A stretch of 64,000 bases of DNA. It comes from Candidatus Foliamicus sp. Lineage in GTDB: Bacteria; Pseudomonadota; Gammaproteobacteria; Steroidobacterales; Foliamicaceae. The stretch lies in the NCBI GenBank assembly GCA_965238055.1, contig OZ250178.1:2841184-2905183 (forward strand), in the 5' to 3' direction. Both the position numbers and the translations under genes were made by a program. Numbering within the stretch: the stretch's first letter is position 1; each line of letters starts with the position of its first letter. Positions 49,301-64,000 of the stretch are shown here, in pieces. The notes beneath the pieces are model-generated. The model ran no database searches. It was not told where the DNA came from and saw nothing but the letters and a program-made list of their open reading frames with translations.

Positions 49301-49464
49301 GGAGCCCTCCTCAAGAATTTTGGGTCAGTGTAGCAGCCTTTCCGAATTGGATTTTGCGGCGAGTACTGAGGCCCCGACGGGCAAAGTGGGCCAATTCCCG
49401 CTGCTCAAAAATCCACCAGCTGCGTGCTAGAATCATTGTCCTTTCTAACGGGAGAAATACTGCC

Positions 49465-51894
49465 ATGAGGCTTCGTCTATCAATTCTGGGAGCCGCGGCG
49501 CTGACGCTGGTTGCGGTTCCGTCCCTGGCTCAGGACACCGGCGGTACGCTGGAGGAAATCGTCGTTACGGCCCGTAAGTTCGGCGCCGAGCGTCTTCAGG
49601 ACGTGCCTATTTCGGTGACCGCGATTACCGAAGAAACACTGCGGGACATGCAAGTGCTCGACTTCGAAGATTTCGCCTACCAGGTGCCAGGCCTCACCTT
49701 CCTCGACACAGGCCCCGGACAGCGCCGCTACGTGATGCGCGGAATTCAGTCGGCGGGGCAGCAGCAGGTGGCGGTGTATTACGACGAAGTACCTCTACCG
49801 GGTGTTCAAAGTGCAAGTTCCAACAGCGGTTCGCAGACCACCGATCTCAAGCTGTTCGACATGGAGCGGATTGAAGCATTGCGTGGGCCGCAAGGCACCA
49901 CCTATGGCGCAAATTCACAAAGCGGCACGATGCGCTTTATTACCGCCAAACCGGATCTTGATGCGTTCAGCGCCACGCTGGGCGGTCAACTGGGACAGAC
50001 CTCGCACTCCAACGACTACAACTGGAGTGGGCACGGTGTGTTCAACATTCCCCTTTCCGACGTCATGGGAATGCGCCTGGTAGCGTACAACGTCGAAGAT
50101 GCGGGCTGGCTGGAGAATAATCGCTGCCGCCCGGTCAATGCAGCGGAAGATCCGCGCGATCCAGGCGTCGAGCTGGCCTGCCTGAACCTTCAGGATTTCA
50201 ATTACGTGGACACAAGAGGACTTCGTGCGAATTTCCTGTGGCGGCCGAGCGACACGTTCTCACTCACCGCCCAGTACTGGTGGCAGGACCGCTACCTGGC
50301 CGGAGACAACCGGTATCATCCGTACGACACGTACGATGAGCGGGGCGTTAGTGATAACGCCGATAACGATAATGTTGCCGGCTTTACGCATTTTCACACC
50401 GGCGAATTCCTGGTTGGAGACTATGCTCAAACCTTCAAGCCGGACGAGCAACAGATTTTCAGCCTGACCGGCGACTGGGACTTGGGATTCGCAACCCTGA
50501 CCGCGACTGCATCCCGTTACGAGCGGGATTTCGAGTTCAAGTTCGATTCCACCTGGATCATCACTTTTCTTTACGAAAACAACAGCAGCGATGCATTCAA
50601 CTTCTTTACCGAGCGCGCCGACCTGATCTATGCGCTTACCGACCAGCGCCAGAGCCTGGATCAAGACGCTATCGAGGTACGCCTTACGTCGGCCGGGGAT
50701 AGTGCGCTGCAGTGGGTTGGCGGAGTATTCTGGCGTGAGCGGAACACCGACTTCCAGAGTTTTGTGCCGGTGATCAACTCAGACGGCCTGACCTACGACC
50801 CGGGCACGCCGTTTACGATTCCCCCGACCAGCAATCCCGGCGCGGGTATTCCCGGCTGTCATCCCTGCGTTTTTGCGCGTTTCGCTGACAAGAACATCGC
50901 TGAGAATGCGGTCTTCGCCGACGCAAGTTATCAGCTGAATGAGCAATGGGAGCTGGGCGTGGGCGTGCGCTGGTTCAAGGTGGAGCAGTTCGAGATTGGC
51001 GACACCGTCTTCAATTTCGCGGCCTTTGCGCCCAACCCGCCTGACGGTCGTACCGACGATCTCGAAATCGACGATGATGAAATCACCACCAAGGTCGTGC
51101 TCCGCTGGCAGCCGAACGAAAGGTTGACCCTGTACGGGACACGCTCAGAGGGCTTTCGACTGGGCGGTACCAATAATCCCGGCATCATCAACAATCCGGC
51201 ATCGGCCGAGGCGGGCGTGCCGCCCCTGTTCGAAGCCGACAAGGTCACCAGTTACGAAGTGGGCATGAAGTCGCAGTGGATGGAAGGCGCAGTGCAGTGG
51301 AACAACGCGGCTTTCTTCATGCAATGGGAAAACCTGCAGGTGGACGGAGACGATCCTACCGGAGCATTTGGATTCATCGGTAACGCAGGTGAGGCCGAAG
51401 TGACAGGTATAGAGACCGAACTTATTGGCCGCTTCGGAAACCTGGATCTCACCGCGGCCTTGACCTATCTCGGCAAGCGGGAGCTTACCGAAGATCAGGT
51501 TTCCGAGTCCGTACTTGCGCCCGGCAAGGCCGGCGACGATATTCCGCAGATTCCCGAGCTGACCGCCAGTTTCATGGCGCAATACAACTTCCAACCGCCC
51601 ATCACCGGCTGGGACGCCTTCGTTCGTTTGGAAGGCAGTCACAAGGGAAGTTCCTGGACCCAGTTGCGGCCCGACGCAGGAAACAATCGTTTCAAAGACT
51701 CCTACGCGTTGTTCAACGCCCGTCTGGGTTTCCGCAACGAGGAAAGGGCATTGGACGTTCAATTGTTCCTGGAGAACATTGCCGACGAAGCTCCGGATAT
51801 CGCGATAGGCACCGGTGGCGGGCAGCCTACCAGCAAGATCACCAGCCGTCCGCGCACGATCGGCCTGGCGGTAACGCAGGCGTTCGGCGGCTAA
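49465..51894 (+). CDS. TonB-dependent receptor
   Basis: ATG at 49465. Signal MRLRLSILGAAALTLVAVPSLAQ, TonB-box/plug (LEEIVVTARK...IEALRGPQGTTYGANSQSGTMRF), beta-barrel, and a C-terminal aromatic (...GLAVTQAFGG). Confidence 0.92.
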   Translation: MRLRLSILGAAALTLVAVPSLAQDTGGTLEEIVVTARKFGAERLQDVPISVTAITEETLRDMQVLDFEDFAYQVPGLTFLDTGPGQRRYVMRGIQSAGQQQVAVYYDEVPLPGVQSASSNSGSQTTDLKLFDMERIEALRGPQGTTYGANSQSGTMRFITAKPDLDAFSATLGGQLGQTSHSNDYNWSGHGVFNIPLSDVMGMRLVAYNVEDAGWLENNRCRPVNAAEDPRDPGVELACLNLQDFNYVDTRGLRANFLWRPSDTFSLTAQYWWQDRYLAGDNRYHPYDTYDERGVSDNADNDNVAGFTHFHTGEFLVGDYAQTFKPDEQQIFSLTGDWDLGFATLTATASRYERDFEFKFDSTWIITFLYENNSSDAFNFFTERADLIYALTDQRQSLDQDAIEVRLTSAGDSALQWVGGVFWRERNTDFQSFVPVINSDGLTYDPGTPFTIPPTSNPGAGIPGCHPCVFARFADKNIAENAVFADASYQLNEQWELGVGVRWFKVEQFEIGDTVFNFAAFAPNPPDGRTDDLEIDDDEITTKVVLRWQPNERLTLYGTRSEGFRLGGTNNPGIINNPASAEAGVPPLFEADKVTSYEVGMKSQWMEGAVQWNNAAFFMQWENLQVDGDDPTGAFGFIGNAGEAEVTGIETELIGRFGNLDLTAALTYLGKRELTEDQVSESVLAPGKAGDDIPQIPELTASFMAQYNFQPPITGWDAFVRLEGSHKGSSWTQLRPDAGNNRFKDSYALFNARLGFRNEERALDVQLFLENIADEAPDIAIGTGGGQPTSKITSRPRTIGLAVTQAFGG

Positions 51895-51930
51895 ACGAGT
51901 TCATCCCCTTTTCGAGGAGGGGAGTCCTCT

Positions 51931-52010
51931 ATCGCTCCCCCCTCAAAGGGAGAGCGACCTCCCCCCTCAAAGGGAGAGCGACCTCCCCCCGCAAAGGGGG
52001 AGCGACCTCC
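51931..52010. repeat. 24-bp tandem direct repeat, ~3.3 copies (unit GCGACCTCCCCCCTCAAAGGGAGA)
   Basis: GCGACCT recurs at 51954, 51978 and 52002 (period 24). A degenerate first copy starts at about 51931. Sits between the TBDR stop and the NSS transporter start. Confidence 0.8.
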
Positions 52011-52042
52011 CTCTGTAACGGAGGGAGTGGCATCTTTTGCCC

Positions 52043-53407
52043 ATGACGACTGAAACCTGGTCATCCACGCGTGGCTTCCTCATGGCCTCGGTGGGCGCGG
52101 CTGTCGGCCTGGGCAACCTGTGGCGCTTCCCCTACATTGCCGGCAGCAACGGCGGCAGCGCATTCGTGCTGGTGTACATGGGCTGGGTGCTGGCGCTGGG
52201 ACTGCCGCTGGTAATCGGTGAATTGGCCCTGGGACGGCGCGGCGGACTCAATGCCGTACACACGATGCGCGAAGTCGCGCTCAGGGAAGGGCGAAGCAGC
52301 GGCTGGGTAGTGGTCGGGTGGCTTTCCATCCTGGTCCCGCTGGTGGGGATCACCTACTACAGCATCGTTGCCGGCTGGTCTTTGAACTACACCGTGCTGG
52401 CGGCCCAGGGAAGTTTCCGGGGAATCACAGCGCAGGGATCGCAAGAACTGTTCGGCGAACTGTTGTCCAGCCCGTTGCGGATGATGTTCTGGCACGGTCT
52501 GTTCATCGCTGTCGTGGTGGCCGTGATTGCCGCCGGCGTGCGCCGAGGACTCGAGTTGGCGAGCAAGCTGATGATGCCGGGCCTGTTCGTCCTGCTGGTC
52601 CTGCTGGTGATCTGGGCGGCCATTGCCGGCGATTTTCGCCAGGGCATGTCGTTCCTGTTCAGCGCGGATTTCTCGGCACTCACTATGGACGGCGTCCTGA
52701 TGGCGCTGGGCCAGGCGCTCTTTTCGCTGGCGATCGGCGTGGGCATGCTGATCACCTACGGCGCCTATGTCCCCAGGAACGTATCGCTGCCAAGGGCCGG
52801 GGCGATTATTGCCGGCGCCGACTCGCTCGTAGCCCTGCTGGCGGGCATGGCCATTTTCCCGGTGGTGTTCTCAGTGGGCCTGGAGGCGAACAGCGGTCCG
52901 GGCCTGATTTTCGAGACCCTGCCCGTGGCCTTTGCGGGGATGCCGGGCGGGGTCGTGCTGGGGACGCTGTTCTTTGTAATGCTCAGCCTGGCCGCAATCA
53001 CCACCGGATTCGGAATGATCGAGCCTGCAGTGGCCTGGATGTCGCGCAGCACGTCACTGTCGCGTCCTGTCAGCACCGTGGTTGTCGGCCTCCTGACCTG
53101 GTTGGTGGGGCTGATCTTTGTATTTTCCTTCAATGTGTGGGGCGACCTGAGACCTCTGGGCGGTGTCTTCAGCGAAATGGGACTGTTTCAGCTCGTGGAT
53201 TTCCTGGTGGCGAATGTGCTGTTACCGGTCAACGCCTTGCTGTTGGCGGCTTTCCTGGGCTATTTCTGGGCGCTGAAGTCCGCTTCTTCGGAGACTGGAT
53301 TGAGTGGTTCCCTGCTGCGAGTCTGGCGGGTGCTGCTCTGGTTGGCGCCGATCCTCATTCTGCTCGTTCTCTGGGGTCTGTTGAGAGATTTCCTGCCCGG
53401 CGCATAA
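52043..53407 (+). CDS. sodium-dependent transporter, neurotransmitter:sodium symporter (NSS/SNF) family
   Basis: WSSTRGFLMASVGAAVGLGNLWRFPYIAGSNGGSAFVLVY is the NSS signature; multi-TM throughout. Start is ATG 52043 (TTG 52037 listed). Confidence 0.92.
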   Translation: MTTETWSSTRGFLMASVGAAVGLGNLWRFPYIAGSNGGSAFVLVYMGWVLALGLPLVIGELALGRRGGLNAVHTMREVALREGRSSGWVVVGWLSILVPLVGITYYSIVAGWSLNYTVLAAQGSFRGITAQGSQELFGELLSSPLRMMFWHGLFIAVVVAVIAAGVRRGLELASKLMMPGLFVLLVLLVIWAAIAGDFRQGMSFLFSADFSALTMDGVLMALGQALFSLAIGVGMLITYGAYVPRNVSLPRAGAIIAGADSLVALLAGMAIFPVVFSVGLEANSGPGLIFETLPVAFAGMPGGVVLGTLFFVMLSLAAITTGFGMIEPAVAWMSRSTSLSRPVSTVVVGLLTWLVGLIFVFSFNVWGDLRPLGGVFSEMGLFQLVDFLVANVLLPVNALLLAAFLGYFWALKSASSETGLSGSLLRVWRVLLWLAPILILLVLWGLLRDFLPGA

Positions 53408-53433
53408 GACGGCTTTGTTAAACTTGCCTCCCA

Positions 53434-53746
53434 GCCCGGGTGGCGAAATTAGGTATACGCAGGGGACTTGATATTGAGCGCCGGTTGGGAAACCGCCGGA
53501 TGCACCAGGAGTCAAATTCGGGGAAACCTCAGCACCTAAGGTGGTGGCAATCCCGAGCTAAGCCCCGTTACGGGGAAAGTGTAGAGACTTGACGGCTCCG
53601 GCCTACGTCGCCGCCAGGCGATAGGGCAGAGGGAAAGTCCAGACCCCAAAAGGAGCGCACGGCGCATCCTGCGGCGAAAGTCGTAGAGGGTAAGAAAATC
53701 CCCCGGAGGAAACTCCGTGCCGGTTCGAGTCCGGCCCCGGGCACCG
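53434..53746 (+). tRNA. tRNA-Leu (anticodon UAA) interrupted by a group I intron between U34 and A35
   Basis: 5' exon is 53434-53469 (GCCCGGGTGGCGAAATTAGGTATACGCAGGGGACTT). 3' exon is 53695-53743 (AAAATCCCCCGGAGGAAACTCCGTGCCGGTTCGAGTCCGGCCCCGGGCA), then CC. Joined, they give a class II tRNA: acceptor GCCCGGG/CCCGGGC, anticodon stem GGGGA/TCCCC, loop CTTAAAA, long variable arm CGGAG-GAAA-CTCCG, T-arm GCCGG-TTCGAGT-CCGGC. Confidence 0.85.
53470..53694 (+). ncRNA. group I intron (IC3-like, no ORF), ~225 nt
   Basis: The exon ends in U; CUU can pair with the intron GAG at 53476-53478 to form P1 with a U-G wobble. The intron ends in G (53694). Core blocks GTCAAATTCGGGGAAACCTCAGC (53511-) and GTGTAGAGACTTGACGG (53579-53595) closely resemble the P3/P4 and P7 regions of the Azoarcus tRNA-Ile intron as I remember it. 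Confidence 0.8.
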
Positions 53747-53753
53747 TACTGCG

Positions 53754-53882
53754 GGGCAAGGCAAACTGACGGTCAAAAAGGTCCGGGTGATTAATGAACC
53801 GGGCTTGTACGGCGACGGCAATACCCTGTACTTGAGAGTGGCGTCCGGCGGATCCAAGCAATGGGTCCAGCGGCTCACCATC
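53754..53882 (+). pseudogene. 5' fragment (~43 codons) of a P4-type tyrosine integrase (arm-binding domain), no start codon, truncated
   Basis: GQGKLTVKKVRVINEPGLYGDGNTLYLRVASGGSKQWVQRLTI matches the usual ..KLT...V......G.y.DG.gLyL.V...GSK.W..R pattern. It starts within ~10 nt of the tRNA 3' end, and similarity stops at about 53882. Confidence 0.6.
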
Positions 53883-54450
53883 GCACGCAGCGTATCTCGC
53901 CCAGCCTGCATCCGGTCAGCAGGAGCAACCGCACCGCCGCAACGCAGACCGGGCTTTCCGCTTCGCACAGGGGCAGGATCGCGCCGAGCCTCGCAAGGTC
54001 GACCGCGCCGAGCAGCCGCCCGCGCGGCGGTCGCCGGTAGCGGACGATGCCCCTGCGTGGGTTCCCGGCAGCTTCGGGCTGATGGCCCTACGCGATGGCG
54101 CGGTCGAACATGTTGCGCAGTATGTCATGACTTCGATTCGCGCCGCCCGGCTTTCTGCGTCCATATTCGTGGAAGAAGCGGGCAATATCGGCGCACACGG
54201 CCGATCCGACGCGGAGATGGCCGAGCGCGAACAAATATCCAGCACCGCACGGCATGCGCGTAGCTTTCCCGCGTCGCCAGCTTCGCGTGTTCCGAGCGTC
54301 TGCCTAACAACGGAGCCGTTGCAGCGCCGATGCCGGATCCACGTCTTGCGCCCGTCCGGTCGCGGCCCCAGATTGAGCGCATCTATCCTGGCAACGGTGT
54401 TTTTCACGCTCCCGTAGCCTGCCCGGGCAAACGCCGCTATCATATGACCA
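53878..54450 (-). pseudogene. decayed tyrosine integrase (N-terminal half only): frameshift, in-frame TAG, 3' truncation
   Basis: One frame reads ...RPDGRKTWIRHRRCNGSVVRQTLGTRE... A second frame reads ...LGHLRVGSAVCADIARFFHEYGRRKPGGANRSHDILRNMFDRAIA*GHQPEAAGNPRRGIVRYRRPPRGRLLGAVDLARLGAILPLCEAESPVCVAAVRLLLLTGCRLGEIRCVRW. The TAG at 54088-54090 sits where Trp is expected. The catalytic domain beyond the first Arg is missing. Confidence 0.6.
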
Positions 54451-54459
54451 GTTTCATGA

Positions 54460-54714
<255 letters not shown>

Positions 54715-54732
54715 TACCGGCCGTCATCTCGA

Positions 54733-55182
54733 ATGCGCTATTTCGACACCAGTTTCCTCGTACCCCTCGTCCTCCCCGAGACCACCAGCGAGCCGATCGC
54801 CGCTTTTTTCGAGGGCCTGCCGGGTGAAGAGCTGGCGGTCAGCCATTGGACCCGGGTCGAATTCGCTTCGCTTCTGGCCCGCGAAGTCCGTATGGACAGG
54901 CTGCCCGCCTCGGCGGCGCGCGAGGCGGGCTCAAGGTTCGAAATGATGGTCCGCGAGTCGTTCGTCGTGCTGTTGCCGAATCGCAGCGACTTTGATCGGG
55001 CAAGGGACTGGCTCGGCCAATTCGAGACCGGTTTGAGAGCCGGCGATGCGCTGCACCTCGCTATTGCGGGCAACCGCGGGGCGGATGCCATCTACACGCT
55101 GGACAAGCTTATGATCGTGGCGGGCGAGAGGCTGGACTTGCCGACCAGCGCAGGCATCCGCCTCCCAGGCTACGGCGATTGA
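54733..55182 (+). CDS. vapC: PIN-domain ribonuclease toxin VapC
   Basis: MRYFDTSFLVPL (Asp5), ...AGDALHLAIA..., ...IYTLDKLM. The acidic residues sit in the usual PIN positions. Confidence 0.88.
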   Translation: MRYFDTSFLVPLVLPETTSEPIAAFFEGLPGEELAVSHWTRVEFASLLAREVRMDRLPASAAREAGSRFEMMVRESFVVLLPNRSDFDRARDWLGQFETGLRAGDALHLAIAGNRGADAIYTLDKLMIVAGERLDLPTSAGIRLPGYGD

Positions 55183-55489
55183 TGGCTTCCAGGATCCTCC
55201 GCGTATGCTGGGGCTCAAGCAACTCTCGATAACATCTCCGCTCGCAATGGATCGACGGCCAATTGCGGTGATTGCCATTGCTTCTTGGGTGTTGTCCGCG
55301 CAGTAGAGAGGCGATTGATGGCACCGGCCAACGCGGTCACGGAGCTGACAATCGATGTGGTGGACTTTCCGTGTAACGATGAGTCGCGGTTGACCGTTAC
55401 CTCGTAGTTCGAGCCGTTTCTGATAGGGAGTACCGTCACTCACCGTTCCGCAAGGCTTGAGCGGCTTGGTGTGCAACATCACATGGATG

Positions 55490-58222
55490 CTATTGTCGGC
55501 GAGCGGCGGTTGCGAGACGGCGATAAGCTTCGGATTGAACCAGCGTTGGCGCGATCCTTCGGATTTGCTCGAGTGCGTCACCCAAGTAATAGGGGATCGT
55601 CGCATTGTCGGCGCGGGAGATAGTCAAATCAAGAAGGCGAAGCAACGCTCTGGCTTTTGGTTCCTCATTGATCATGGCAAGAGTTGGTCTCTCGCCAGCA
55701 TTATGGAAGTCATAAGAGCGTAGGGACCAACAATCAAACGGCGTAAGGAATCGTTCAATAGTAATTGCCGCCTCAGCGAATTCCTGTCCTGCTGCGACTG
55801 GCAGTTCCGCCAATTTTTCACTAACACTGGAGGAGGCCAGGGAGCGTTCCTGTGGCCATATGGTTTCAAGGAAAGGTCTGGCGACTGATTGAAACAGATC
55901 CTCCTTCGATACGGGGCCCGGAGGCTGATGCTCTGCGTTTACGAAACGAACTATGGCTCCCGCGCAGTACGCCCGTACCTCGTCTTCCAGCAATCGGATC
56001 ATTTGCTGAATTCGCTCTCGCGTCACTTTCGAATTACGCCTTCCCCGTAGCGCATGAAGAGAATCGATCACAACGCTGAACGCAAGCGAGCGGCGGGTTT
56101 TACGACCAAGCCTAGGGTCCGTCGCTCGATAGGCCATATCGTTGCCAATCACTTCTAATACATGAGCAACTCGCGTCCGCCGACCTACGGCGCGCCAAAG
56201 CGCCAGCGCCTCAGAGTCGTCTGCGCGTAGCGGCTCAATAAGATGCTCTTGGGTCCATTCTTCGTCGGACCGCAAAAAGTAATCTAACGCTTCAATCATC
56301 CGATGCTTGGCAATCAATTCTGAGCGCCCGTTAGCATCAATAATTTTTTCGCGCAAAACCGCAAAGTCGTCGGCTCCGTCAAATGGACGAGGCTCCTTGT
56401 TTAGGTTAGGGCAAGCGGCCAAGAAGACGCCGACGAGCTTACCCACAGGCGTGTTCAGCGTATCAAGATCCATAGGATCATCGGAATTGGTTTGCGCAAC
56501 GACATTTAGGTCAGGCTCTTCGTCCGGAGACTGCATGGCATTTGTTGCTTCAACTGCCCTGGGCCAAACGCGGTGCCACACCACCGGCCAATTTCGAGCC
56601 GAGAAAAGTTGTTGCTTCCACGAGTCGAGCCAATTGGAAATTCCTTGGATGGCTTTCGTTATTACGTCATCGGGCAACTCTAGTATGAGAGCAAGCACCC
56701 GACGTGCCTCCGAAGATAAATCGCGCGCTTCATTTTCCTGCGATTTATCTGACGGAGGTGAATGCACCCAACCGAAGCGTTCCCATACCACAGGGTATTG
56801 CGCTCCGCAATCCGCGGTTGATTCGATATCACTCAAAACACTAATGGAATTGCCTTTCTCTGCCAGCCAAGCGTCAGCAGAAAACCCGAAGTTGGATGCC
56901 GCGCGTCGGCTTGCTACGTTCCCGGTGCCAAACGCGCCTTCAAGCACCTGTAGACGGGCGTCGCCTTGCAGATTATCCAGCGAGCGGTCGGGGTGCTCCG
57001 CGACCAACTCCCCGCGTGGGGAATCCAAGTCCAGAAATCCTTCGTCGATTCGATCCATTTCCACCAAGTCAGGAAACTGGCCAATCTTCGAGTCGAGCCA
57101 TTCCTTGGCGCGTTGCGAAAGAGCGGCGCCGGCAATTTCGATCCGCTTTAGTTCCCGAACGACCCAATAGAGGCGGGCCTGTTCAATTTGGTCTGCTCCT
57201 AAATGCCCGCGCCATAAATTTCGGGGCGGCCTCCTGCGTATTCTCCTGATGACCGCCTTTTGCGTCGTGTCGTCAAATTCTGCGAACCGGCGGGCACGCA
57301 GCTCGGCAATCTCCGGATGATGATTGACATCCCAGAACACCCCAAAATCCAATTGAAGAAAAAATTCGCCGACCTCGCCGGCCGGAGTAATCCGAGAATC
57401 ACGCGACATAGCGGCCCACAGTCGCAGGTGCATTGGAGAGTCCGTATGCTTCCAGCGGCGTACAAAGCCCAGTGCTGAAGGTCCATCAATATCAAATAGC
57501 CGCGAAACAACGGCATACAGAAGCTTGACCGATGGCGCAAAGCCTGGGCCACCACCATCGAGCACCCTGTCTTCTTCGCCGCTTTCTGGCTCTGTAACGT
57601 AATGCACGCGACGCAAGTAAAGATGCACCCGCATCCATCCGATGCGCCGCGCAATTCCCAGACCGCGCAAAACCGCAGCGTCTAGCGCATTAGCCAGAGA
57701 AAGTAGAAATTCACCCTCATCCAATTGCGCCAAAGCACTGGCCAGTTGTCGAGAGGTCGAATGGATTTCATCTCCGCTCGTTATCGTGGCGAGCAGGAGA
57801 TCCCGGAATGTTCTTGGAGACTCGCGCAAACCGTAGAATTGCGCATGCCAACTTTGATATTTATCAACCTTCAGTCTCGGCGCAACAAGATCAACAATGG
57901 CCGAAACAAGCGCCCCCGATCGTTCTCCGGAGCGTATCCGATCTTGAACCATTACCGGCTGTATTCCGTAGCGGTCCACCGCTGGCTCATTCCAACTTTC
58001 CTGAATAAGCCTCCATGTGGAACGCCAGGGTTCACGCAGGTTCGTTCCTTCGGGCCGGCTGAGCAGTTCCAGAATTGCATGGCGCTTGATCAGGTCGCCC
58101 GGTAGAAGATGCAATGCCCATTCGACGGTTTCTTTTTTCTCCAGCCGGCCTTCCAGAAACGTGACCGCGGCGCGCATCATCGCTTCATCCCTGTCGTTCA
58201 ACACTGAGCGCAGAAAACTCAC
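55490..58222 (-). CDS. large (~910 aa) uncharacterised protein, translationally coupled to the upstream SIR2-like gene
   Basis: A long uninterrupted ORF in a more AT-rich region. The GTG at 58222 shares 1 nt with the SIR2 TAG stop, and GGAGG lies 7 nt upstream. No Walker A, HExxH, nuclease or other motif found by eye. Leu/Arg/Glu/Ala/Trp-rich, probably helical. Confidence 0.8.
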   Translation of the reverse strand: MSFLRSVLNDRDEAMMRAAVTFLEGRLEKKETVEWALHLLPGDLIKRHAILELLSRPEGTNLREPWRSTWRLIQESWNEPAVDRYGIQPVMVQDRIRSGERSGALVSAIVDLVAPRLKVDKYQSWHAQFYGLRESPRTFRDLLLATITSGDEIHSTSRQLASALAQLDEGEFLLSLANALDAAVLRGLGIARRIGWMRVHLYLRRVHYVTEPESGEEDRVLDGGGPGFAPSVKLLYAVVSRLFDIDGPSALGFVRRWKHTDSPMHLRLWAAMSRDSRITPAGEVGEFFLQLDFGVFWDVNHHPEIAELRARRFAEFDDTTQKAVIRRIRRRPPRNLWRGHLGADQIEQARLYWVVRELKRIEIAGAALSQRAKEWLDSKIGQFPDLVEMDRIDEGFLDLDSPRGELVAEHPDRSLDNLQGDARLQVLEGAFGTGNVASRRAASNFGFSADAWLAEKGNSISVLSDIESTADCGAQYPVVWERFGWVHSPPSDKSQENEARDLSSEARRVLALILELPDDVITKAIQGISNWLDSWKQQLFSARNWPVVWHRVWPRAVEATNAMQSPDEEPDLNVVAQTNSDDPMDLDTLNTPVGKLVGVFLAACPNLNKEPRPFDGADDFAVLREKIIDANGRSELIAKHRMIEALDYFLRSDEEWTQEHLIEPLRADDSEALALWRAVGRRTRVAHVLEVIGNDMAYRATDPRLGRKTRRSLAFSVVIDSLHALRGRRNSKVTRERIQQMIRLLEDEVRAYCAGAIVRFVNAEHQPPGPVSKEDLFQSVARPFLETIWPQERSLASSSVSEKLAELPVAAGQEFAEAAITIERFLTPFDCWSLRSYDFHNAGERPTLAMINEEPKARALLRLLDLTISRADNATIPYYLGDALEQIRRIAPTLVQSEAYRRLATAARRQ

Positions 58223-59496
58223 TACCAACCCTCCCGCTGATCCTCCAACGGCACGCTCACAATGGCATTCAGCCATCCCAGTTCCGCCTTTTGCCTGGAA
58301 ATCACCTTGGACAGGCGAACACGCTCGCTCGGGTCGCTGCGTCGAATTAGATGGTCGAAAAAATCACGCTGCTCATCGCTTGCTTCCGATCTTCTTGTGC
58401 TCACGATTCTCTTTAGTTCACGTTCGACCTGGCTTCTGCTTGCGCCAATTGAAAGAACTCCGGCCCATCGCTCCAATGTGTGCTCAAGCTGCGAATGATC
58501 GCCATTCTGAATTCTGTAAGGAATTGGCGTGATTCCTTGAGCCCTCCAGTCCTCCAACTCCACCGAATCATCATTTGTCATCCCATGGAATATGAAACGC
58601 TCCTTTAGATCCGGAAAATGGGCCCTGTCTGCAGCGACGGCGTTCAGAAGGTATCTCATTGGCGGATCGTTGGCGCTGTACCCCACCAGCACCAGGTTAT
58701 ACAAACGCGCGGCATCGTAAATCAGGTCGGGCACGACCCGCCTGCGCAAATAGAATTCACCAAAGTCCTGATCGGAAATGATCAGGTCCGTCGTTCTCTT
58801 GGGATTCCGGTCCAGCGCGCCGTGAATGTGCAGGACACCGCTGAATTCCGGCCTTAGCGATGGCCTGGGAATGCTTCCCAGAGCATACGTCTGAATAGGC
58901 TGCCTCATGTTTCTCGCAGCATTTTCCAGGAGCAAATCGAAATTCGTCGTGATGATGGTCGACGCTGCGCCACGGTCCGAAAGACGCATCAATGCCCGAT
59001 GAATCGGTGCTGGCTTTGGTTTACCGGAACGCAGCACGTCCTTGTTCTCATCTGTGCCATCGGAGCAGGGGCCACCAGACTTTGGTTTACCGGAACGCAG
59101 CACATCCCCAATCGCTTGTCGGATCGGACTGTCAGCGCTTGATTTTCCTTCCAGCCTTCGCTCAAGCATTCCCAATACAACATCGTACTCCTGCCTCCGA
59201 AAACGCCTGACCTCCGCCTGTTGCGCCGCTAGCAGGCCAGTTAGCTCAAGTTCTTCGGGATTGCAACCTGATTCCTCGTTCGTGGCAATCTCGGAAAACA
59301 CGGCTTTGTCTAATTCTTCATACACCCTTAGGACAAGACATCGAAAGTCGGGCAATCCCGCAGACCTCGAAACGCCGGCGCCAGCTACAAATAGAACCCT
59401 GCCTTGCGCATGTGCAAGAAGCAGCCGCTCAGGAATCGGGATCAATGATGGTCCCAGCAAAATGTTCCTGCCGCCAGTGGTGGGGGGTTGCGTCAT
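58222..59496 (-). CDS. SIR2-like (SIR2_2 family) putative NAD+-consuming protein
   Basis: VLFVAGAGVSRSAGLPDF, TTNFDLLLE, LHIHGAL and LVLVGYSANDP occur in the canonical order. Contains an in-frame internal duplication (DVLRSGKPK x2). Confidence 0.85.
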   Translation of the reverse strand: MTQPPTTGGRNILLGPSLIPIPERLLLAHAQGRVLFVAGAGVSRSAGLPDFRCLVLRVYEELDKAVFSEIATNEESGCNPEELELTGLLAAQQAEVRRFRRQEYDVVLGMLERRLEGKSSADSPIRQAIGDVLRSGKPKSGGPCSDGTDENKDVLRSGKPKPAPIHRALMRLSDRGAASTIITTNFDLLLENAARNMRQPIQTYALGSIPRPSLRPEFSGVLHIHGALDRNPKRTTDLIISDQDFGEFYLRRRVVPDLIYDAARLYNLVLVGYSANDPPMRYLLNAVAADRAHFPDLKERFIFHGMTNDDSVELEDWRAQGITPIPYRIQNGDHSQLEHTLERWAGVLSIGASRSQVERELKRIVSTRRSEASDEQRDFFDHLIRRSDPSERVRLSKVISRQKAELGWLNAIVSVPLEDQREGW

Positions 59497-59567
59497 TCTC
59501 GAGCGTGCCCCATCCGTAGAGCCATTGAGTTAAATGGCGCCGCCAGCATCAACGCCTCGTCTGGCCT

Positions 59568-60380
59568 CTAAAGCGCCTGATTCGCGTCGACGCTGAAACC
59601 GGCGGCCTTCAACTCTCGCAATAGCTGCATTTTCCACCCGTCCTCATTGTCTAGAGGAACATAGAGGATGCCATCGCAGTCCGAGGGTCTTTCAACATTT
59701 CCTTTCGACAATGCACAGACTCTCTCCCGGCCTAATTTCCCGATGAAGTACCCAAACTCGAAAACGACATTCTGCCGTGCGCGAGGCTTGAGGTTGCGCC
59801 GCTGTTCCCTGAGCGCACCCATGTCGTCCGGCGTTAGCAGGACGACGGCAAACGTGACGTCTCCGTAGTCCTCGAACTTCTCGATAATTGTGCGCCCTTC
59901 ATTCGGCTGTTCGTGCAAGATAACCGGTTTGAGTTTCAGTTTTTCGAGGAATCGCGCAACCGTTTCCCGAGCCGATTTGTCGTGGCCATGGATCACAAAG
60001 ACCTTGTTCGTATTCTTCTGAACCTTGACTTGAGAATCGGAGGTTTTTGACGATTCCTCGTCGTCTTCCCAGTATTCCTTGATCTCCTCTATCATGGATT
60101 CGAGTACAGACGCAGCTCTATCCAAGCCCCGCCGATATGCCGCTTCGAACTCTGAATCCGGTGTGCCCATCGCAAGTGCCATCAGCGAATAGCGGATGCT
60201 ATTGAAGTCCACAACGTGGCTTGACTTGCGGCCGAACGTATTGGCAATAGCCACTCGTGCGTTCCTGCGCCATTTGTTGAACTCCGGTGATTGGCGTCGC
60301 AGCCTCTTCAATTCAGGCACTTCGTCCAGTACTCTCCTCAGGCGTTGAATAGACTTCGCTTTATTCGGACGGGCCATCAA
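59568..60380 (-). CDS. TIR-like nucleotide-binding domain protein (COG4271 / Cap12-PycTIR-type) with ~130-aa N-terminal domain of unknown function
   Basis: The C-terminal half VFVIHGHDKSARETVARFLEKLKLKPVILHEQ...FAVVLLTPDDMG...RARQNVVFEFGYFIGKLGRERVCAL...ERPSDCDGILY matches the conserved pattern of this TIR-like family as I remember it. Confidence 0.85.
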   Translation of the reverse strand: MMARPNKAKSIQRLRRVLDEVPELKRLRRQSPEFNKWRRNARVAIANTFGRKSSHVVDFNSIRYSLMALAMGTPDSEFEAAYRRGLDRAASVLESMIEEIKEYWEDDEESSKTSDSQVKVQKNTNKVFVIHGHDKSARETVARFLEKLKLKPVILHEQPNEGRTIIEKFEDYGDVTFAVVLLTPDDMGALREQRRNLKPRARQNVVFEFGYFIGKLGRERVCALSKGNVERPSDCDGILYVPLDNEDGWKMQLLRELKAAGFSVDANQAL

Positions 60381-60709
60381 CTCAGTTCCTTGATATTTAA
60401 GTCCTGGATTCCTCGGTCATCCACGATCTTCAGAATGGTCTTATCAATTGCCACGGGTGTTTTCTACTCATATCGTCCCGTGGGTTTGATTCTGGCGCCA
60501 ATGATAGTCGGTCGACTCGCTACCGCGGAATTTCCGTGTTGTTGGACAGTTTCTCCACACTGGCCTGCCTCCAGAAATTGTTGATCACACACAACAAATT
60601 GTCTTGTTGCTCGTGTGCTCGTTCTGAATCGATCCCGCCCGCATCGTCGGATCCTCCTCCCCAAAGTCGAGAAGTTGCAGGGAATGCTCAAGCCCCGAAA
60701 GCAATACGA

Positions 60710-63511
60710 TCATCGCTTTCGGCGTCGTTTGCCCTTTATGTCAGCCGCAAGCGGCGTTCGCATCTTTTCATAGAGTGCGAACAAATGTTCGACGCGCTGG
60801 CGCTCCGACGCGAAACCGGAGCGGCGATAGAGTTGATCAACCGCACGGTCGAGCGCTTGATGCGCCTTACGCAGGTTCGGCGGCATCAGGTCGGGATCGT
60901 AGAGATTGGCGAGGGTGGACGTGAGCCATTCGGCGCGGGCGTCGAGGACGGCCTGCGCGAGAGTCTCTATCTTTGACAAGTCAAGGTCTCGGTTGGTGAA
61001 GTCGGGTGGAGTCGGGAACGTGTTGTAAACGAGGCCGATGGAGTATCGAAAATCGCTCTTTAGCCGTCCACCGACATGGCACAGCCACGTCATGTGCATG
61101 GAAGATGTCAGCAGCGCGAAATCTGCCAGCGTAGCGTTTTCAAGTACGCGCACAAGATTGCTTGGTATCACGGGTGGCTCAAGCCAGCCGATAGGTACGT
61201 ATTCCCGCCGTTCGGAACTGACTTCGGGAATCACCAGGAACGACTCCGTCGGAAGCACGTTCACGTGATAGAGCGTCGGCGTTTCGGCCAGCTTGATCGT
61301 GGGTTTGCTCTTGCTGGCTTGCCTGTAGGCGCGAACGGCTGCGATCCGTTCACGCACAAGCGGCAATTCGGCAAGTGTGTGCGGGGGCGCGTCGTGCAGC
61401 GCGAGAATCCAGCGGTCTCCGCCTTGCAGGTACTCGCGTGCACCCACAAATGGGCGCAGAAGAGGGGCTGCGCCGGGTTCTTTCTCAAGAAAAATCTCTC
61501 TTTCTTCGGCGTTGAATATGTAATGGCCGCCGTCAATAGGCTTGGAACCGATAATCAGTTTCGGCATGCCGTTGATCGGCTGGCTTTCCCCGCGCACGGT
61601 CAGATGCGAGTCGCCCAATCGGCTTGCGTCGAATAGATAGGGCGATAGAACTGTGTGGCGGGTTTCCTCCGGCTCGCCCTGGATGTCGGGATAGCTGAAC
61701 AGGCGTTTCTCGGCATGCACACGGTCGCGTCGGTTGAGGCCCAGAATCGCTACATGAACATGCGCCTTGCCGCGCGCATCCGACCCCCACGCGAAGGTGC
61801 GGTGAGCGAAGGCGATTTCCAGCTTGCAGCGATCGAACAAGATCGGCCAGAGCTGCGCCACCTGCTCGCCCTGGGTAATCGAGTTGGTGGCGACAAAGCC
61901 GATACGGGCGTGGCCTGACTGCACGTACTCGCCTGCCTTGATGAACCAAGCAGTGACGTAGTCGAGCGTGCCCCCGCTCCCGCCCAAGGCAGCGATTCGG
62001 CGCACCTGCGCTCGTTGCTCCGCCGTCTGAAACTTTGCGCCAACGAACGGGGGATTGCCGAACACGAACGAGCACTCTTCGGGCAGAAGGACTTCTCGCC
62101 AATCCATTTCCAGCGCGTCACCGTGCACGATGTGCGGCGAGGTTTCCAACGGAATGCGCGCGTAGGTCTGGCCGAACTCCAGGCTCAGCCGGTTGTTCAT
62201 GATGTGATCCATCATCCACATGGCGGTCTCCGCAATGCGCGCGGGAAATTCGCTGATTTCCATGCCGTTGTACTGATCCACGTCGATCAGCGAAAGCGTG
62301 GCGGCGTCAAGCTCCTCTTGACCAAGCCTGGCGGCCGTGGTGCGGAGTTCGCGGATCACCTCGAGCTCCAAAAGCCGCAGTTCGCGGTAGGCGATGATGA
62401 GAAAGTTGCCGCAGCCGCAGGCGGGGTCGAAGAAGCGCATGCGGCCCAGCTTTTCCTGAAAACGCCGAAGGTCTGCCCTGCGGCGGCTGTCCTTGCGGGA
62501 CTTTAGACGCTCGAATTCCGCCCGCAGATCGTCCATGAACAGCGGTTCGATCACCTTGAGGATGTTCTTTTCGGTGGTGTAGTGCGCCCCCTGGGCGCGG
62601 CGTTGCTCCGGCTTCATGACGGACTGGAACAGCGCCCCGAATATGGCGGGCGAAATGTTCGACCAGTCGAAGCGGCACACCTCCAGCAGTGCTTCGCGCA
62701 TGGAAGCGTTGAAGGATGGAGTGCGCAGGTGCTCGCGAAACAGGTCGCCGTTGACGTACGGGAAACGCGCCAGGTCCTCGTCAAGGAGCGGACTGCGCTC
62801 CTCTTCGGGCGAATTCAGGACCTCGAACAGTTGTCGCAGCCACGGTCCCAGGTCAGCGCCGTCTTCGCTGGTGCGAGTTTCGATGAACTCCAGGAAGATG
62901 TCACGGGGCTCAAAGATGCCGGTGTCGTCGGCGAACAGGCAGAACACGATGCGCACCAGGAAGCGTTCGAGGTCGTGGCCCCGATAGTTGGCGGCATGCA
63001 GCGCGTCGTGCAGTCGTCCAACCAGTTCCGCAGCCTTGATGTTGGCGGGATCCTGATCGCGGAAGGTGCGCTTCTGCACGCCGAGGATGAAGCCGAAATG
63101 CTCTACGTGGGCGGGAAGGTCCTTGAGGCTGAATCGGACCTCTGTGCGCTCGTCCAGATCGTGCAACTCGAAGGTCTGGAAATCGCTGACCAGGATGTAG
63201 CGGGGACGGTCTCGCTCCTTGAGTGCGTCGAAGTATTCTCCGGCCTGACCGTAGGCTTTGCTGAGATCACGCCCGGCGCTCTTCTGTTCGATGATCAGGA
63301 CGCCGGGCCAGAACAGGTCGATGAAGCCGGAACTGTTGTCGAGCTTTGCTACATGCTCCTCATAGCGTGCCACCGAGCGACGCTCCACGCCGAATGCCCG
63401 GAAGAAGGCATTGTAGAAGCTGTGGGTTTCGCTTGTCTCGCGAACCGCGTTGCTCCATTCGTCGGCGAATGTGGCCGCGCGGACCCGGACCTCGTTCCAT
63501 GAAAGGCGCAT
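60710..63511 (-). CDS. MmeI-family type IIL restriction-modification enzyme (fused endonuclease, N6-adenine methyltransferase and target-recognition domain)
   Basis: 933 aa. N-terminal PD-(D/E)xK-like FIDLFWPGVLIIEQKSAGRDL, methyltransferase motif I FFDPACGCGNFLI and motif IV FGNPPFVG, plus a long C-terminal TRD. No separate M or S gene is nearby. Confidence 0.88.
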   Translation of the reverse strand: MRLSWNEVRVRAATFADEWSNAVRETSETHSFYNAFFRAFGVERRSVARYEEHVAKLDNSSGFIDLFWPGVLIIEQKSAGRDLSKAYGQAGEYFDALKERDRPRYILVSDFQTFELHDLDERTEVRFSLKDLPAHVEHFGFILGVQKRTFRDQDPANIKAAELVGRLHDALHAANYRGHDLERFLVRIVFCLFADDTGIFEPRDIFLEFIETRTSEDGADLGPWLRQLFEVLNSPEEERSPLLDEDLARFPYVNGDLFREHLRTPSFNASMREALLEVCRFDWSNISPAIFGALFQSVMKPEQRRAQGAHYTTEKNILKVIEPLFMDDLRAEFERLKSRKDSRRRADLRRFQEKLGRMRFFDPACGCGNFLIIAYRELRLLELEVIRELRTTAARLGQEELDAATLSLIDVDQYNGMEISEFPARIAETAMWMMDHIMNNRLSLEFGQTYARIPLETSPHIVHGDALEMDWREVLLPEECSFVFGNPPFVGAKFQTAEQRAQVRRIAALGGSGGTLDYVTAWFIKAGEYVQSGHARIGFVATNSITQGEQVAQLWPILFDRCKLEIAFAHRTFAWGSDARGKAHVHVAILGLNRRDRVHAEKRLFSYPDIQGEPEETRHTVLSPYLFDASRLGDSHLTVRGESQPINGMPKLIIGSKPIDGGHYIFNAEEREIFLEKEPGAAPLLRPFVGAREYLQGGDRWILALHDAPPHTLAELPLVRERIAAVRAYRQASKSKPTIKLAETPTLYHVNVLPTESFLVIPEVSSERREYVPIGWLEPPVIPSNLVRVLENATLADFALLTSSMHMTWLCHVGGRLKSDFRYSIGLVYNTFPTPPDFTNRDLDLSKIETLAQAVLDARAEWLTSTLANLYDPDLMPPNLRKAHQALDRAVDQLYRRSGFASERQRVEHLFALYEKMRTPLAADIKGKRRRKR

Positions 63512-63580
63512 CAGTTCGTGTCGCTAGCCTTATTCAGTGTGCGGGACAGCTCATATGGCGTCGGGCTCACAGCCATCGAG

Positions 63581-63832
63581 TCATCCGAAAAGCGTTTCAC
63601 GGACCTCGCTCTTTGGCCGATCCAGGAAATCCGCGACGTCGGACACGATTCCATCCGGGGTATCAATGTGCAAATCCCGGTGCCTTGGCACTGTCACGCT
63701 GTGCCGCTTCGCGTCCGCGTTCGTGCGCGTGACAGGCATGTGACTTCCCTTCGTTCGGGTCACACGATACCCGTAGTGCCGAGCGAGCAGCCTTGCGACC
63801 TTCTCACCGGAGAGGTCGCGCGGAACCTTCAT
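63581..63832 (-). CDS. hicA: HicA-family mRNA interferase toxin
   Basis: 83 aa. ...LSGEKVARLLARHYGYRVTRTKGSHM... is the HicA dsRBD-like signature. ATGA overlap with the upstream HicB-like ORF. Confidence 0.85.
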   Translation of the reverse strand: MKVPRDLSGEKVARLLARHYGYRVTRTKGSHMPVTRTNADAKRHSVTVPRHRDLHIDTPDGIVSDVADFLDRPKSEVRETLFG

Positions 63833-64000
63833 ACGGCGATGGCGTCCTCTCTTACCAGGTGCAATCGGATGACTCTCGGCACCTCCGTTTCATCGAAGTG
63901 ACAGAGGACGGCATCCCGCGCCATTACCTTCAACTCGGGCCAGTCCTCGCCCTGGGTGAAGATGCTATGCCCCAGGGCACGCGCTTCGTATCCGCCTTCC
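63829..64000 (-). CDS. hicB: HicB-like antitoxin, C-terminal part only (5' end beyond window)
   Basis: The minus-strand frame is open to the window edge: ...EGGYEARALGHSIFTQGEDWPELKVMARDAVLCHFDETEVPRVIRLHLVREDAIAV*. Its stop overlaps the hicA ATG. Confidence 0.7.
   Translation of the reverse strand, partial: EGGYEARALGHSIFTQGEDWPELKVMARDAVLCHFDETEVPRVIRLHLVREDAIAV

Follow-up and report, generated by a model that had tools for sequence, protein, structure and literature searches.

A TIR-like gene that lies directly beside a SIR2-like gene and a third, large gene raises the question of whether the three form one defence system or whether the TIR-like gene acts by itself. This arrangement is found in a defence island of Candidatus Foliamicus sp., within a stretch of 64,000 nucleotides that was analysed as a whole and is referred to here as the window. 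A sequence-only reading had allowed for both options and had drawn an analogy with Thoeris. The features discussed below are collected in Table 1.

Table 1. Features of the TIR-like gene and its neighbours, in window positions
Feature	Position	Strand	Remarks
TIR-like gene	59568..60377	minus	269 aa plus stop; ATG start; gene caller on the source contig agrees
N-terminal helical domain	60063..60377	minus	aa 1-105; proposed sensor/regulatory module
Acidic, variable, disordered linker	60012..60062	minus	aa 106-122; pLDDT <50 for residues 107-122
CAP12/Pycsar-type TIR domain	59571..60011	minus	aa 123-269; PF10137; predicted NAD+ hydrolase effector
Active-site motif R201-Q-N203-V-V-F-E207	59757..59777	minus	aligns with RDNVVFE of SfSTING
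D233	59679..59681	minus	counterpart of SfSTING D110; PSD aligns with PTD of SfSTING
25-codon frame GTG...TGA	60377..60454	minus	stop overlaps the TIR start as TGATG; mod 3'-end fossil
Remainder of the ~190-nt 5' flank	60455..60567	minus	conserved across loci with different upstream genes
MmeI-type IIG restriction-modification enzyme	60710..63511	minus	330 nt upstream, co-directional; neighbour
SIR2 subunit of probable split Dsr1	58222..59496	minus	neighbour, not part; NCBIfam Dsr1 NF041818 positions 56-324, E=2.9e-55
C-terminal subunit of probable split Dsr1	55490..58222	minus	neighbour, not part; Dsr1 positions 894-1262, E=1e-33

The TIR-like open reading frame was confirmed as a real gene. 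It had been listed as 59568..60380 on the minus strand, with 270 aa and a TTG start, and an ATG lies one codon inside this TTG. All homologues start with MARP.K in the alignment and an AAGGA box is present upstream of the ATG at 60377; the product is therefore most likely the 269-aa protein. A sequence search returned more than 7,800 full-length homologues of about 270 aa in which both domains are conserved. The PADLOC model PDLC05005 for PDC-S35 matched residues 7-268 of the protein with profile positions 3-261 of 264 (E=5.7e-95), and four further PDC-S35 models matched as well. Judged by these profile matches, the protein belongs, over its full length, to PDC-S35, a candidate family already catalogued.

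The PADLOC candidate (PDC) set consists of genes embedded in other defence systems (10.1101/2024.01.29.577857), the sources being BREX, DISARM and type I systems (Payne et al., 10.1101/2024.01.29.577857). PDC-S35, which the window protein matches end to end, is embedded in other defence systems as the PDC set is generally. Nevertheless, it is a bioinformatic candidate only, the context that prevails here is type III mod...res rather than BREX, DISARM or type I, and the window copy adjoins a type IIG enzyme instead of lying inside an operon. In the searchable literature, we found no experimental work on this family and no paper naming PDC-S35, and nothing specific on COG4271 or on TIR proteins in connection with type III, embedded or anti-restriction genes. 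PF10137 appears there in general TIR surveys only. The sequence-only reading was silent on membership of PDC-S35 and on restriction-modification and MNT-HepT neighbours, including the MmeI-type gene upstream.

With regard to the C-terminal domain, its earlier assignment to the TIR-like type of Cap12 and PycTIR was borne out by profile searches. PF10137 matched residues 126-244 with profile positions 1-118 of 119, far beyond chance (E=3e-41; 140.6 bits with a cut-off of 24.7). A profile search of the domain against PDB sequences returned Cap12 (9lmq, 1.3e-8; 7un8, 6e-7) and PycTIR (8jsj, 1.6e-4). In the model of the full-length protein, this domain reached a moderate pLDDT of about 70; its best Foldseek matches were the TIR-STING structures 9lmq, 9lmr and 7un8 (E=1.7e-5 to 2e-3, with 9lmq and 7un8 at 1.7e-5 to 7e-4), and other TIR domains came next. 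In SfSTING, the NAD+ pocket is lined by R78, N80 and the catalytic E84, and the active site is completed by D110, contributed by the other TIR of the dimer (PMC9402430). The corresponding residues of the window protein are R201, N203, E207 and D233, which follow one another (R/N/E/D) at the same intervals of 2, 4 and 26 residues and are invariant among the 30 homologues aligned. The protein is thus predicted from its sequence to be an NADase and, by analogy, its activation would be triggered by oligomerisation.

Cap12/TIR-STING (SfSTING, 7UN8, 9LMQ) belongs to the same PF10137 subfamily, is the best match in both sequence and fold, and shares the R-x-N-x3-E motif together with the trans-acting aspartate, which requires TIR-TIR assembly. 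In Cap12, however, the TIR domain is N-terminal, whereas in the window protein it is C-terminal and located behind a helical bundle. Unlike the Cap12 CBASS effector, the window protein has neither a STING domain nor a CD-NTase, and the NCBIfam Cap12 models match its TIR core only (39.5 and 38.1 bits, cut-off 450). PycTIR (8JSJ) exhibits the same module order, with a regulatory domain at the N-terminus and a PF10137 TIR at the C-terminus; the PDB profile match to it (E=1.6e-4) spans the whole TIR domain, and the PADLOC PycTIR model also matched (1.1e-12). In contrast to PycTIR, the N-domain of the window protein gave no Pfam match of any kind, and hence none to a cyclic-nucleotide-binding domain, and no pyrimidine cyclase lies nearby. 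The lack of a cyclase partner noted within the window also holds beyond it: among the genes called in the 10 kb to either side on the source contig, no Pfam match to a cyclase or CD-NTase domain was found. Across other genomes, the annotated recurrent neighbour clusters comprise restriction-modification, MNT, HepT, AAA_15 or housekeeping genes, and no cyclase.

The N-terminal domain, which had been left unassigned, is a predicted helical bundle with helices at residues 6-18, 20-24, 31-48, 53-59 and 74-102. Modelled alone with AlphaFold2, it reached a pLDDT of 91.6 and a pTM of 0.83. Not a single Pfam match was obtained even at E<=10, and structure searches of the PDB (best E=0.3) and of BFVD yielded nothing significant; the top PDB match, an Ocr chain, was rejected as spurious (TM 0.24). 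The linker that joins it to the TIR domain varies in length and sequence among the homologues aligned. The N-domain is present in 739 clusters at 50% identity. Among the best 150 of these 739 clusters, 62 have a PF10137-type TIR attached and 22 have other C-termini, the alternative partners being TIR_2, a DpnII-MboI-type REase, PNP_UDP_1, Hypoth_Ymh, AbiJ_NTD4, Nuc_deoxyrib_tr and a membrane segment. The variants inspected stand alone, beside toxin-antitoxin genes. These architectures show the N-domain to be a swappable module that is reused with other toxic effectors, and domain-architecture logic suggests that it serves as a sensor. The AbiJ-NTD and DpnII-MboI-NTD (Anantharaman et al. 2013, PMC3710099) are of the same ~100-aa size and mostly helical, and their logic corresponds to that seen here, with an N-module that is joined in different proteins to a TIR, an REase, a Ymh HEPN or a nucleoside deoxyribosyltransferase domain. 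Five diverse N-domains were compared with Pfam, the AbiJ_NTD models included, and no match was found at E<=10.

The products of the SIR2-like gene and the large gene match the N- and C-terminal parts of Dsr1, respectively, and the pair is most likely a split Dsr1. Dsr1 is a self-sufficient known system that works as a single protein. The SIR2 subunit also matches the PADLOC Dsr1 model (E=4.7e-44), and the large subunit comprises 910 aa from a GTG at 58222, in agreement with the gene caller; as separate polypeptides, both halves fall well short of the 1400 bits set as the equivalog cut-off. A frameshift artefact was rejected as the cause of the split, given that the SIR2 stop and the GTG of the large gene overlap as TAGTG behind a GGGAGGG box and that the split is kept in two relatives (L082 and L085).

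These data bear directly on the proposal that the TIR protein makes or senses a signal for the SIR2 and large proteins in a three-gene, Thoeris-like system. Several features of the window agree with it: the TIR and SIR2 genes are co-directional, the gap of 71 nt reported for them is correct (SIR2 start at 59496), no predicted terminator was found between them, and the order MmeI-TIR-SIR2-large is kept in the same two relatives, at 84-87% identity. However, none of the 80 other genome loci that carry a TIR homologue has a homologue of either the SIR2 or the large subunit within 10 kb. In a further relative with 82% identity, L086, the MmeI-TIR pair is kept at the same SNF/TonB-receptor chromosomal site and Dsr1 is absent. 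The likeness to Thoeris (ThsB TIR and ThsA SIR2-SLOG) comes down to a TIR-family gene adjoining a SIR2-family gene. In the window, the TIR domain is of the effector CAP12/Pycsar type and matched PF10137 only, with no match to a ThsB-type Pfam model, whereas the SIR2 protein corresponds to the N-terminal part of Dsr1, with weak ThsA matches confined to the SIR2 core. No SLOG domain was found in it, as had been observed earlier. Furthermore, the TIR gene carries a 5' flank of its own from elsewhere, as described below. Taken together, the comparative data show that the TIR gene is linked neither to the SIR2/Dsr1 pair nor to any cyclase; they largely refute the three-gene proposal, which we regard as extremely improbable, and the Thoeris analogy is likewise unsupported. 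The alternative put forward alongside it, a stand-alone sensor-effector, is the one that the evidence favours.

The sequence between the MmeI and TIR genes points to the origin of the cassette. The product of the 25-codon frame, which ends in ...LKIVDDRGIQDLNIKELS before the stop, resembles the C-terminus (...AVKIVDDRGIESLKIVEL before the stop) of the Mod protein encoded ahead of the TIR gene in type III operons; residues 1063-1078 of the Mod of L013, which has 1079 aa, are 75% identical to it over 16 aa. By this resemblance, the frame is a fossil: it preserves the 3' end of what was once a type III mod gene. An independent regulatory peptide was also considered for this frame and set aside, as the fossil Mod C-terminus explains it better, although the frame may be translated. 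The flank is common to loci with MmeI upstream (the window, L082 and L085) and to loci with hsdS upstream (L084 and L001), and its remainder may hold the TIR gene's own promoter or leader. Between 55300 and 63700, fewer promoter and terminator sites were predicted than in shuffled controls, with no promoter-like site above chance, and co-transcription of the TIR gene with the MmeI or Dsr1 genes is therefore possible. No RNA families were found by Rfam in 52000-64000.

The family is linked to restriction-modification genes and to MNT-HepT. Restriction-modification genes lie within 3 kb of the homologue in at least 38 of the 80 loci, mostly as type III mod-TIR-res; in nearly all of them mod lies upstream and res downstream on the same strand. 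Stop and start codons often overlap in these operons, with mod for example in L002 and L005. All eight loci of the closest relatives (79-89% identity) place the TIR gene directly after an MmeI- or type I-kind restriction-modification gene: the MmeI gene stays beside it in L082, L083, L085, L086 and L087, and it follows a type I hsdS in L084 and L001 (79% identity). In the window, the upstream gene matches all five MmeI Pfam domains and the PADLOC REase_MTase_IIG model (1167.7 bits).

This habit recalls PrrC and RloC, latent suicidal enzymes within restriction-modification operons (PMC3710099), and suggests that the TIR protein might be a guard that is held inactive by the adjacent restriction enzyme, or that monitors this enzyme or the restriction state. 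As an explanation of the window gene, we consider such coupling unlikely. It is similarly unlikely that the NADase fires when a phage disables restriction, for example by an anti-restriction protein, in which case it would back up the MmeI enzyme here, and type III or type I enzymes elsewhere, as a second line. The placement of the homologues described above, the stop/start overlaps, the precedent of PrrC and the fossil, which indicates that the cassette came to lie beside restriction genes again after leaving a type III operon, all argue for a guard. On the other hand, no restriction-modification gene could be detected close to about half of the loci, where housekeeping genes are the neighbours. 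Three unrelated restriction types occur within one clade (64-100% identity), with at least 17 context switches among 82 sequences, which speaks against a specific protein-protein partnership. Proteins that combine the N-domain with other effectors stand alone, and Payne et al. treat embedded genes as independent systems (10.1101/2024.01.29.577857). The likeness to PrrC and RloC is one of genomic habit, whereas the proteins are unrelated: a predicted TIR NADase in one case, a HEPN anticodon nuclease with an ABC ATPase in the other.

An MNT gene lies directly downstream of the TIR gene in 28 of the 80 loci, often with a 4-nt overlap, and is followed by HepT in 22 of these 28. In the type I relatives, MNT-HepT shares an operon with the TIR gene, and eight of the 28 MNT-linked loci have no restriction-modification gene nearby. 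This association could reflect a TIR-MNT-HepT module in which MNT regulates the TIR protein, for example by nucleotidylation, as it does HepT; the window copy would then be degenerate or re-wired and would have lost this control. Against this, MNT and HepT form a known toxin-antitoxin pair that is complete in itself and frequently lies within restriction operons (PMC3710099), and the TIR protein is fully conserved in the 52 loci, and in the window, where an adjacent MNT is absent. We therefore judge the module to be quite improbable. No partner gene is universal for the PDC-S35 homologues among the 80 loci. Nevertheless, because restriction and MNT neighbours are frequent, the description as a single gene may understate functional coupling.

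The protein might also have no part in defence and be a housekeeping nucleotide-binding or nucleoside-processing enzyme, with a flavodoxin-like TIR/deoxyribosyltransferase fold, that merely resides in variable regions. Relatives of the TIR-like domain are labelled merely as "nucleotide-binding protein" by NCBI, and the neighbours at many loci are housekeeping genes, both of which would fit. However, conservation extends to the residues of the NADase active site, the trans-acting aspartate among them, and the N-domain is common to nuclease and other toxin domains. The gene is also patchy across phyla, switches context, and is found in restriction operons and in islands with toxin-antitoxin and Abi genes. 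A non-defence role thus appears very improbable.

Our preferred explanation is that the TIR-like gene, PADLOC candidate PDC-S35, is a self-contained single-protein abortive-infection module, that is, a stand-alone sensor-effector NADase, and we consider this reasonably probable. The C-terminal TIR domain would act as an NAD+ hydrolase whose active site is completed by TIR-TIR assembly, as in TIR-STING, and the N-terminal helical bundle, connected to it by the disordered acidic linker, would keep the enzyme off. Upon an infection cue, the N-domain would allow oligomerisation, and the oligomerised TIR would deplete NAD+ such that the infected cell no longer supports the phage. The gene probably travels as its own cassette together with its 5' flank of about 190 nt, which would go back to a copy situated between the mod and res genes of a type III operon. 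In the window, this cassette appears to have landed between the MmeI-type IIG enzyme and the split Dsr1 in a defence island, and it would act independently of both.

A broader and more speculative reading concerns the N-domain itself, which could represent a family of infection sensors, so far uncharacterised, with a tie to restriction-modification and with the window gene as a PrrC-like second line behind the MmeI enzyme; we hold this to be rather unlikely. In such a family, the domain would report the failure, the inhibition or a by-product of restriction and would thereby switch on the fused toxic domain, a mode of action that is equally doubtful. The range of toxic domains under such control would comprise the TIR NADase, REase, nucleosidase, HEPN and a membrane segment, which is again a conjecture to which we give little weight. 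It is no more likely that selection for restriction coupling has repeatedly brought the cassette next to type III, type I and type IIG enzymes.

In summary, the TIR-like gene beside SIR2 is not a new Thoeris-like three-gene system. Instead, the island is predicted to stack two independent NAD+-targeting defences, the PDC-S35 gene and the split Dsr1, together with a type IIG restriction enzyme. For a family with thousands of members, this provides a concrete hypothesis: an NADase that depends on oligomerisation and for which four catalytic residues can be named, with a confidently folded N-module that also occurs with other toxins and a strong tendency to reside in restriction operons. If the link to restriction is functional, the family would be a second widespread suicide enzyme that backs up restriction, after PrrC.

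This analysis revealed that the TIR gene stays with restriction genes, and that Dsr1, encoded downstream of it by a SIR2 ORF and a large ORF, comes and goes. This follows from the comparison of 80 loci and of close relatives. The 80 loci came from species-representative genomes encoding a homologue with 43-79% identity and comprised as much as 10 kb of flanking sequence per side; tblastn found neither the SIR2 subunit nor the 910-aa subunit of the window at any of them (0/80). Among the closest relatives, L082 and L085 (84-87% identity), repeat the order MmeI-TIR-split Dsr1. At the chromosomal site that the window occupies, marked by flanking genes for an SNF transporter and a TonB-dependent receptor, another relative, L086 (82% identity), has MmeI, a 284-aa gene and the TIR gene but no Dsr1, and loci L084 and L001 (79% identity) show the order hsdR-hsdM-MNT-HepT-hsdS-TIR. 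The sequence-only reading had considered either a stand-alone sensor-effector or a three-gene TIR-like/SIR2/large-protein system, with homologues that might co-occur with the SIR2 pair. The three-gene system does not hold up, and the stand-alone option stands; the TIR gene is independent of Dsr1 and of any cyclase. The reported absence of a cyclase partner was borne out: on the source contig, none of the genes called within ±10 kb has a cyclase domain in its Pfam hits, and this stretch, which extends 10 kb past the window end, contains HicAB, an HTH gene, IS21 and rve transposases, NERD and AbiEii.

With regard to the SIR2 and large ORFs, they align with Dsr1 positions 56-324 and 894-1262, respectively. 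The SIR2 stop overlaps the GTG start of the second gene (TAGTG) behind a GGGAGGG box, the gene caller predicts 910 aa for this second gene, and the split is retained in two relatives; this therefore appears to be a genuine two-gene Dsr1. A frameshift was rejected as the cause of the split on the basis of the overlap and the retained split, and the SIR2 protein is not taken for a ThsA. The analogy to Thoeris does not hold up either. The island stacks the type IIG enzyme, the TIR gene and the split Dsr1, surrounded by HicAB and VapBC-type modules. In L086 (contig KELL22-1 scaffold_237), a DUF433/DUF5615 pair and the unannotated 284-aa gene replace Dsr1 and a PIN/PhdYeFM pair; the site behaves like a variable defence hotspot.

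The frame originally listed for the TIR gene is present, as is the 71-nt gap to the co-directional SIR2 ORF, and only the start had to be changed. The TTG was replaced by the ATG at 60377, because the homologues all begin with MARP.K in the alignment, an AAGGA box precedes this ATG, and the gene caller gives a product of 269 aa on the source contig.

Coordinates of the features discussed
Feature	Sequence	Position	Strand
TIR gene, ATG start	window	59568..60377	-
Mechanical ORF, TTG start, 270-aa frame	window	59568..60380	-
SIR2 ORF	window	58222..59496	-
Split Dsr1	window	55490-59496	-
MmeI-type IIG restriction-modification enzyme, complete, upstream of TIR gene	window	60710..63511	
25-codon frame, last 78 nt of 5' flank	window	60377..60454	
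Stretch compared with L086	window	49279-60380	
Split Dsr1 of a relative	L082	9323-12822	
Split Dsr1 of a relative	L085	9377-12876	
4-nt overlap with neighbour	L002	2349-2352	
MNT locus	L002	3164-3541	
MNT locus	L005	10795-11172	
MNT locus	L058	10807-11467	
ATPase and ~190-aa protein pair	L022	11118-13477	
DNA methylase-HNH fusion locus	L046	8187-9851	
DNA methylase-HNH fusion locus	L053	8184-9890	
Plasmid N-domain protein WP_001527023.1	NZ_CP132684.1 (L093)	74288-75082	

The assignment of the C-terminal half to the Cap12/PycTIR type was confirmed by a match to the whole of Pfam PF10137 (CAP12/Pycsar effector TIR domain; E=3e-41). Residues 7-268, the whole protein, match PADLOC PDC-S35 (E=5.7e-95), four further PDC-S35 models also hit the protein, and the TIR gene is a new member of this catalogued candidate family. 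PDC systems are no more than candidates, and their definition rests on genes that lie within BREX, DISARM and type I restriction-modification systems (Payne et al., 10.1101/2024.01.29.577857); a literature search found no publication naming PDC-S35. The family comprises more than 7,800 matching proteins, the best 120 of which are all about 270 aa long and 59-100% identical over their full length, with a variable acidic linker between two conserved domains. Among solved structures, the family profile matches Cap12/TIR-STING (9lmq, 1.3e-8; 7un8, 6e-7) and PycTIR (8jsj, 1.6e-4). The full-length AlphaFold2 model (mean pLDDT 71.8; about 70 for the TIR part) retrieved TIR-STING best with Foldseek, followed by TRAM, SARM1 and SPARTA TIR domains.

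The NAD+ pocket of SfSTING comprises R78, N80, the catalytic E84, and D110, which the other TIR in the dimer contributes (PMC9402430). In the family-profile alignment these correspond to R201, N203, E207 and D233, identically spaced (2, 4 and 26 residues), and all four are invariant in 30 homologues. A composite active site that depends on a partner TIR fits the assembly-dependent NADase mechanism described for the CAP12/Pycsar-type TIR clade.

The N-terminal domain was rightly described as unassigned: no Pfam model hits the first ~105 aa, even at E<=10. A model of this domain on its own, built with 56 diverse sequences, predicts a confident helical bundle (pLDDT 91.6, pTM 0.83; helices 6-18, 20-24, 31-48, 53-59 and 74-102), and a fold search returned nothing significant in PDB (best E=0.3) or BFVD. 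Residues 1-110 retrieved 739 clusters from 1.84 billion cluster representatives. The best 150 comprise 62 with a PF10137-type TIR, 66 short fragments and 22 with different C-termini: TIR_2 (4), DpnII-MboI-type REase (4), PNP_UDP_1, Hypoth_Ymh, AbiJ_NTD4, Nuc_deoxyrib_tr, a tail-collar domain and membrane segments. Those REase- and TIR_2-fused variants that were inspected are stand-alone genes, with HicAB-like genes or an integrase next to them. In the other direction, plasmids commonly encode the TIR-like domain behind different N-termini (1,167 records, annotated 'nucleotide-binding protein'). The same two-way modularity characterizes Abi-type proteins with helical N-terminal domains of ~100 aa (Anantharaman et al., PMC3710099); the likeness noted here is one of architecture. 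In two relatives' proteins, P0190 (398 aa) and P0239 (378 aa), the N-domain is duplicated in tandem ahead of one TIR-like domain. Its only plasmid match is a 264-aa hypothetical protein of Klebsiella pneumoniae, located in a duplicated filamentous-phage-like element with Zot, a pII/X replication protein and GspD.

Restriction genes are frequent neighbours of the family. According to neighbour clustering, 25 loci have a type III Mod (N6_N4_Mtase) as the gene directly upstream and about 21 have a type III Res on the downstream side, and 4-nt overlaps with neighbours are frequent (for example in L002 and L005). With a small query set, a restriction-modification gene was detected within 3 kb in at least 38 of the 80 genome loci, almost all of them with an upstream mod and a downstream res in the same orientation. 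Such a gene is also present in each of the seven additional loci taken from close relatives. Otherwise the upstream neighbours are a mixed group, for the most part housekeeping genes (CTP synthase, DapB, amidotransferases). Such proximity could reflect functional coupling of the TIR protein to restriction, on the model of PrrC; we consider this main alternative improbable. A neighbour-joining tree of 82 sequences implies at least 17 changes of restriction context, with type III, type I and MmeI contexts all within one clade. Such a pattern is at odds with a fixed protein partnership and suits a mobile cassette with a preference for, or retention in, restriction loci.

The 5' flank bears on this mobile cassette. 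About 190 nt before the start codon are conserved between MmeI-context and type I-context loci despite a different upstream gene, and they end in a frame of 25 codons, the TGA of which shares bases with the TIR ATG (TGATG). Its product, ...LKIVDDRGIQDLNIKELS*, matches the extreme C-terminus, ...AVKIVDDRGIESLKIVEL*, of type III Mod proteins preceding the gene elsewhere; in L013, whose Mod has 1079 aa, the identity to residues 1063-1078 is 75% (16 aa). It follows that the window gene derives from a copy that lay behind a type III mod gene, the 3' end of which was carried along when the TIR gene moved. This mod fossil is direct evidence of the TIR gene travelling as its own unit.

A small MNT nucleotidyltransferase lies directly downstream of the TIR-like gene in 28 of the 80 loci, often with a 4-nt overlap; HepT follows in 22 of these, and eight have no restriction gene nearby. 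MNT, usually with HepT, might be a toxin-antitoxin pair that travels along with the TIR-like gene, or might regulate the TIR protein; both are absent from the window. In five genomes (L022, L026, L040, L045 and L051), the interval from type III mod to res holds, besides the TIR-like gene, an embedded gene pair for an AAA_15/AAA_21 ATPase (about 470-590 aa) and a ~190-aa protein that lacks annotation; this pair resembles ATPase-plus-small-partner defence pairs. Two Dehalococcoidia genomes carry upstream an N6_N4 DNA methylase-HNH nuclease fusion, another restriction-like partner type. Uncultured MAGs make up most of the closest genome hits, and many of them derive from projects on sponge, other host-associated or marine samples (Entotheonella, Dehalococcoidia, Caldilineaceae, Nitrospirales, Binatia, Latescibacterota); judged from record titles, the subfamily seems enriched in such communities, although this may reflect sampling bias.

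We propose that the TIR protein would be a latent NADase, whose N-domain and linker would keep the TIR domains from assembling. On sensing an infection cue, the N-domain would permit TIR-TIR assembly; this would complete the active site, E207 being joined by D233 in trans, and NAD+ depletion would abort the infection. PADLOC already lists the PDC-S35 family; specific, testable leads come from its habit of being embedded in restriction loci, from the mod fossil and from the N-domain as a reusable module.
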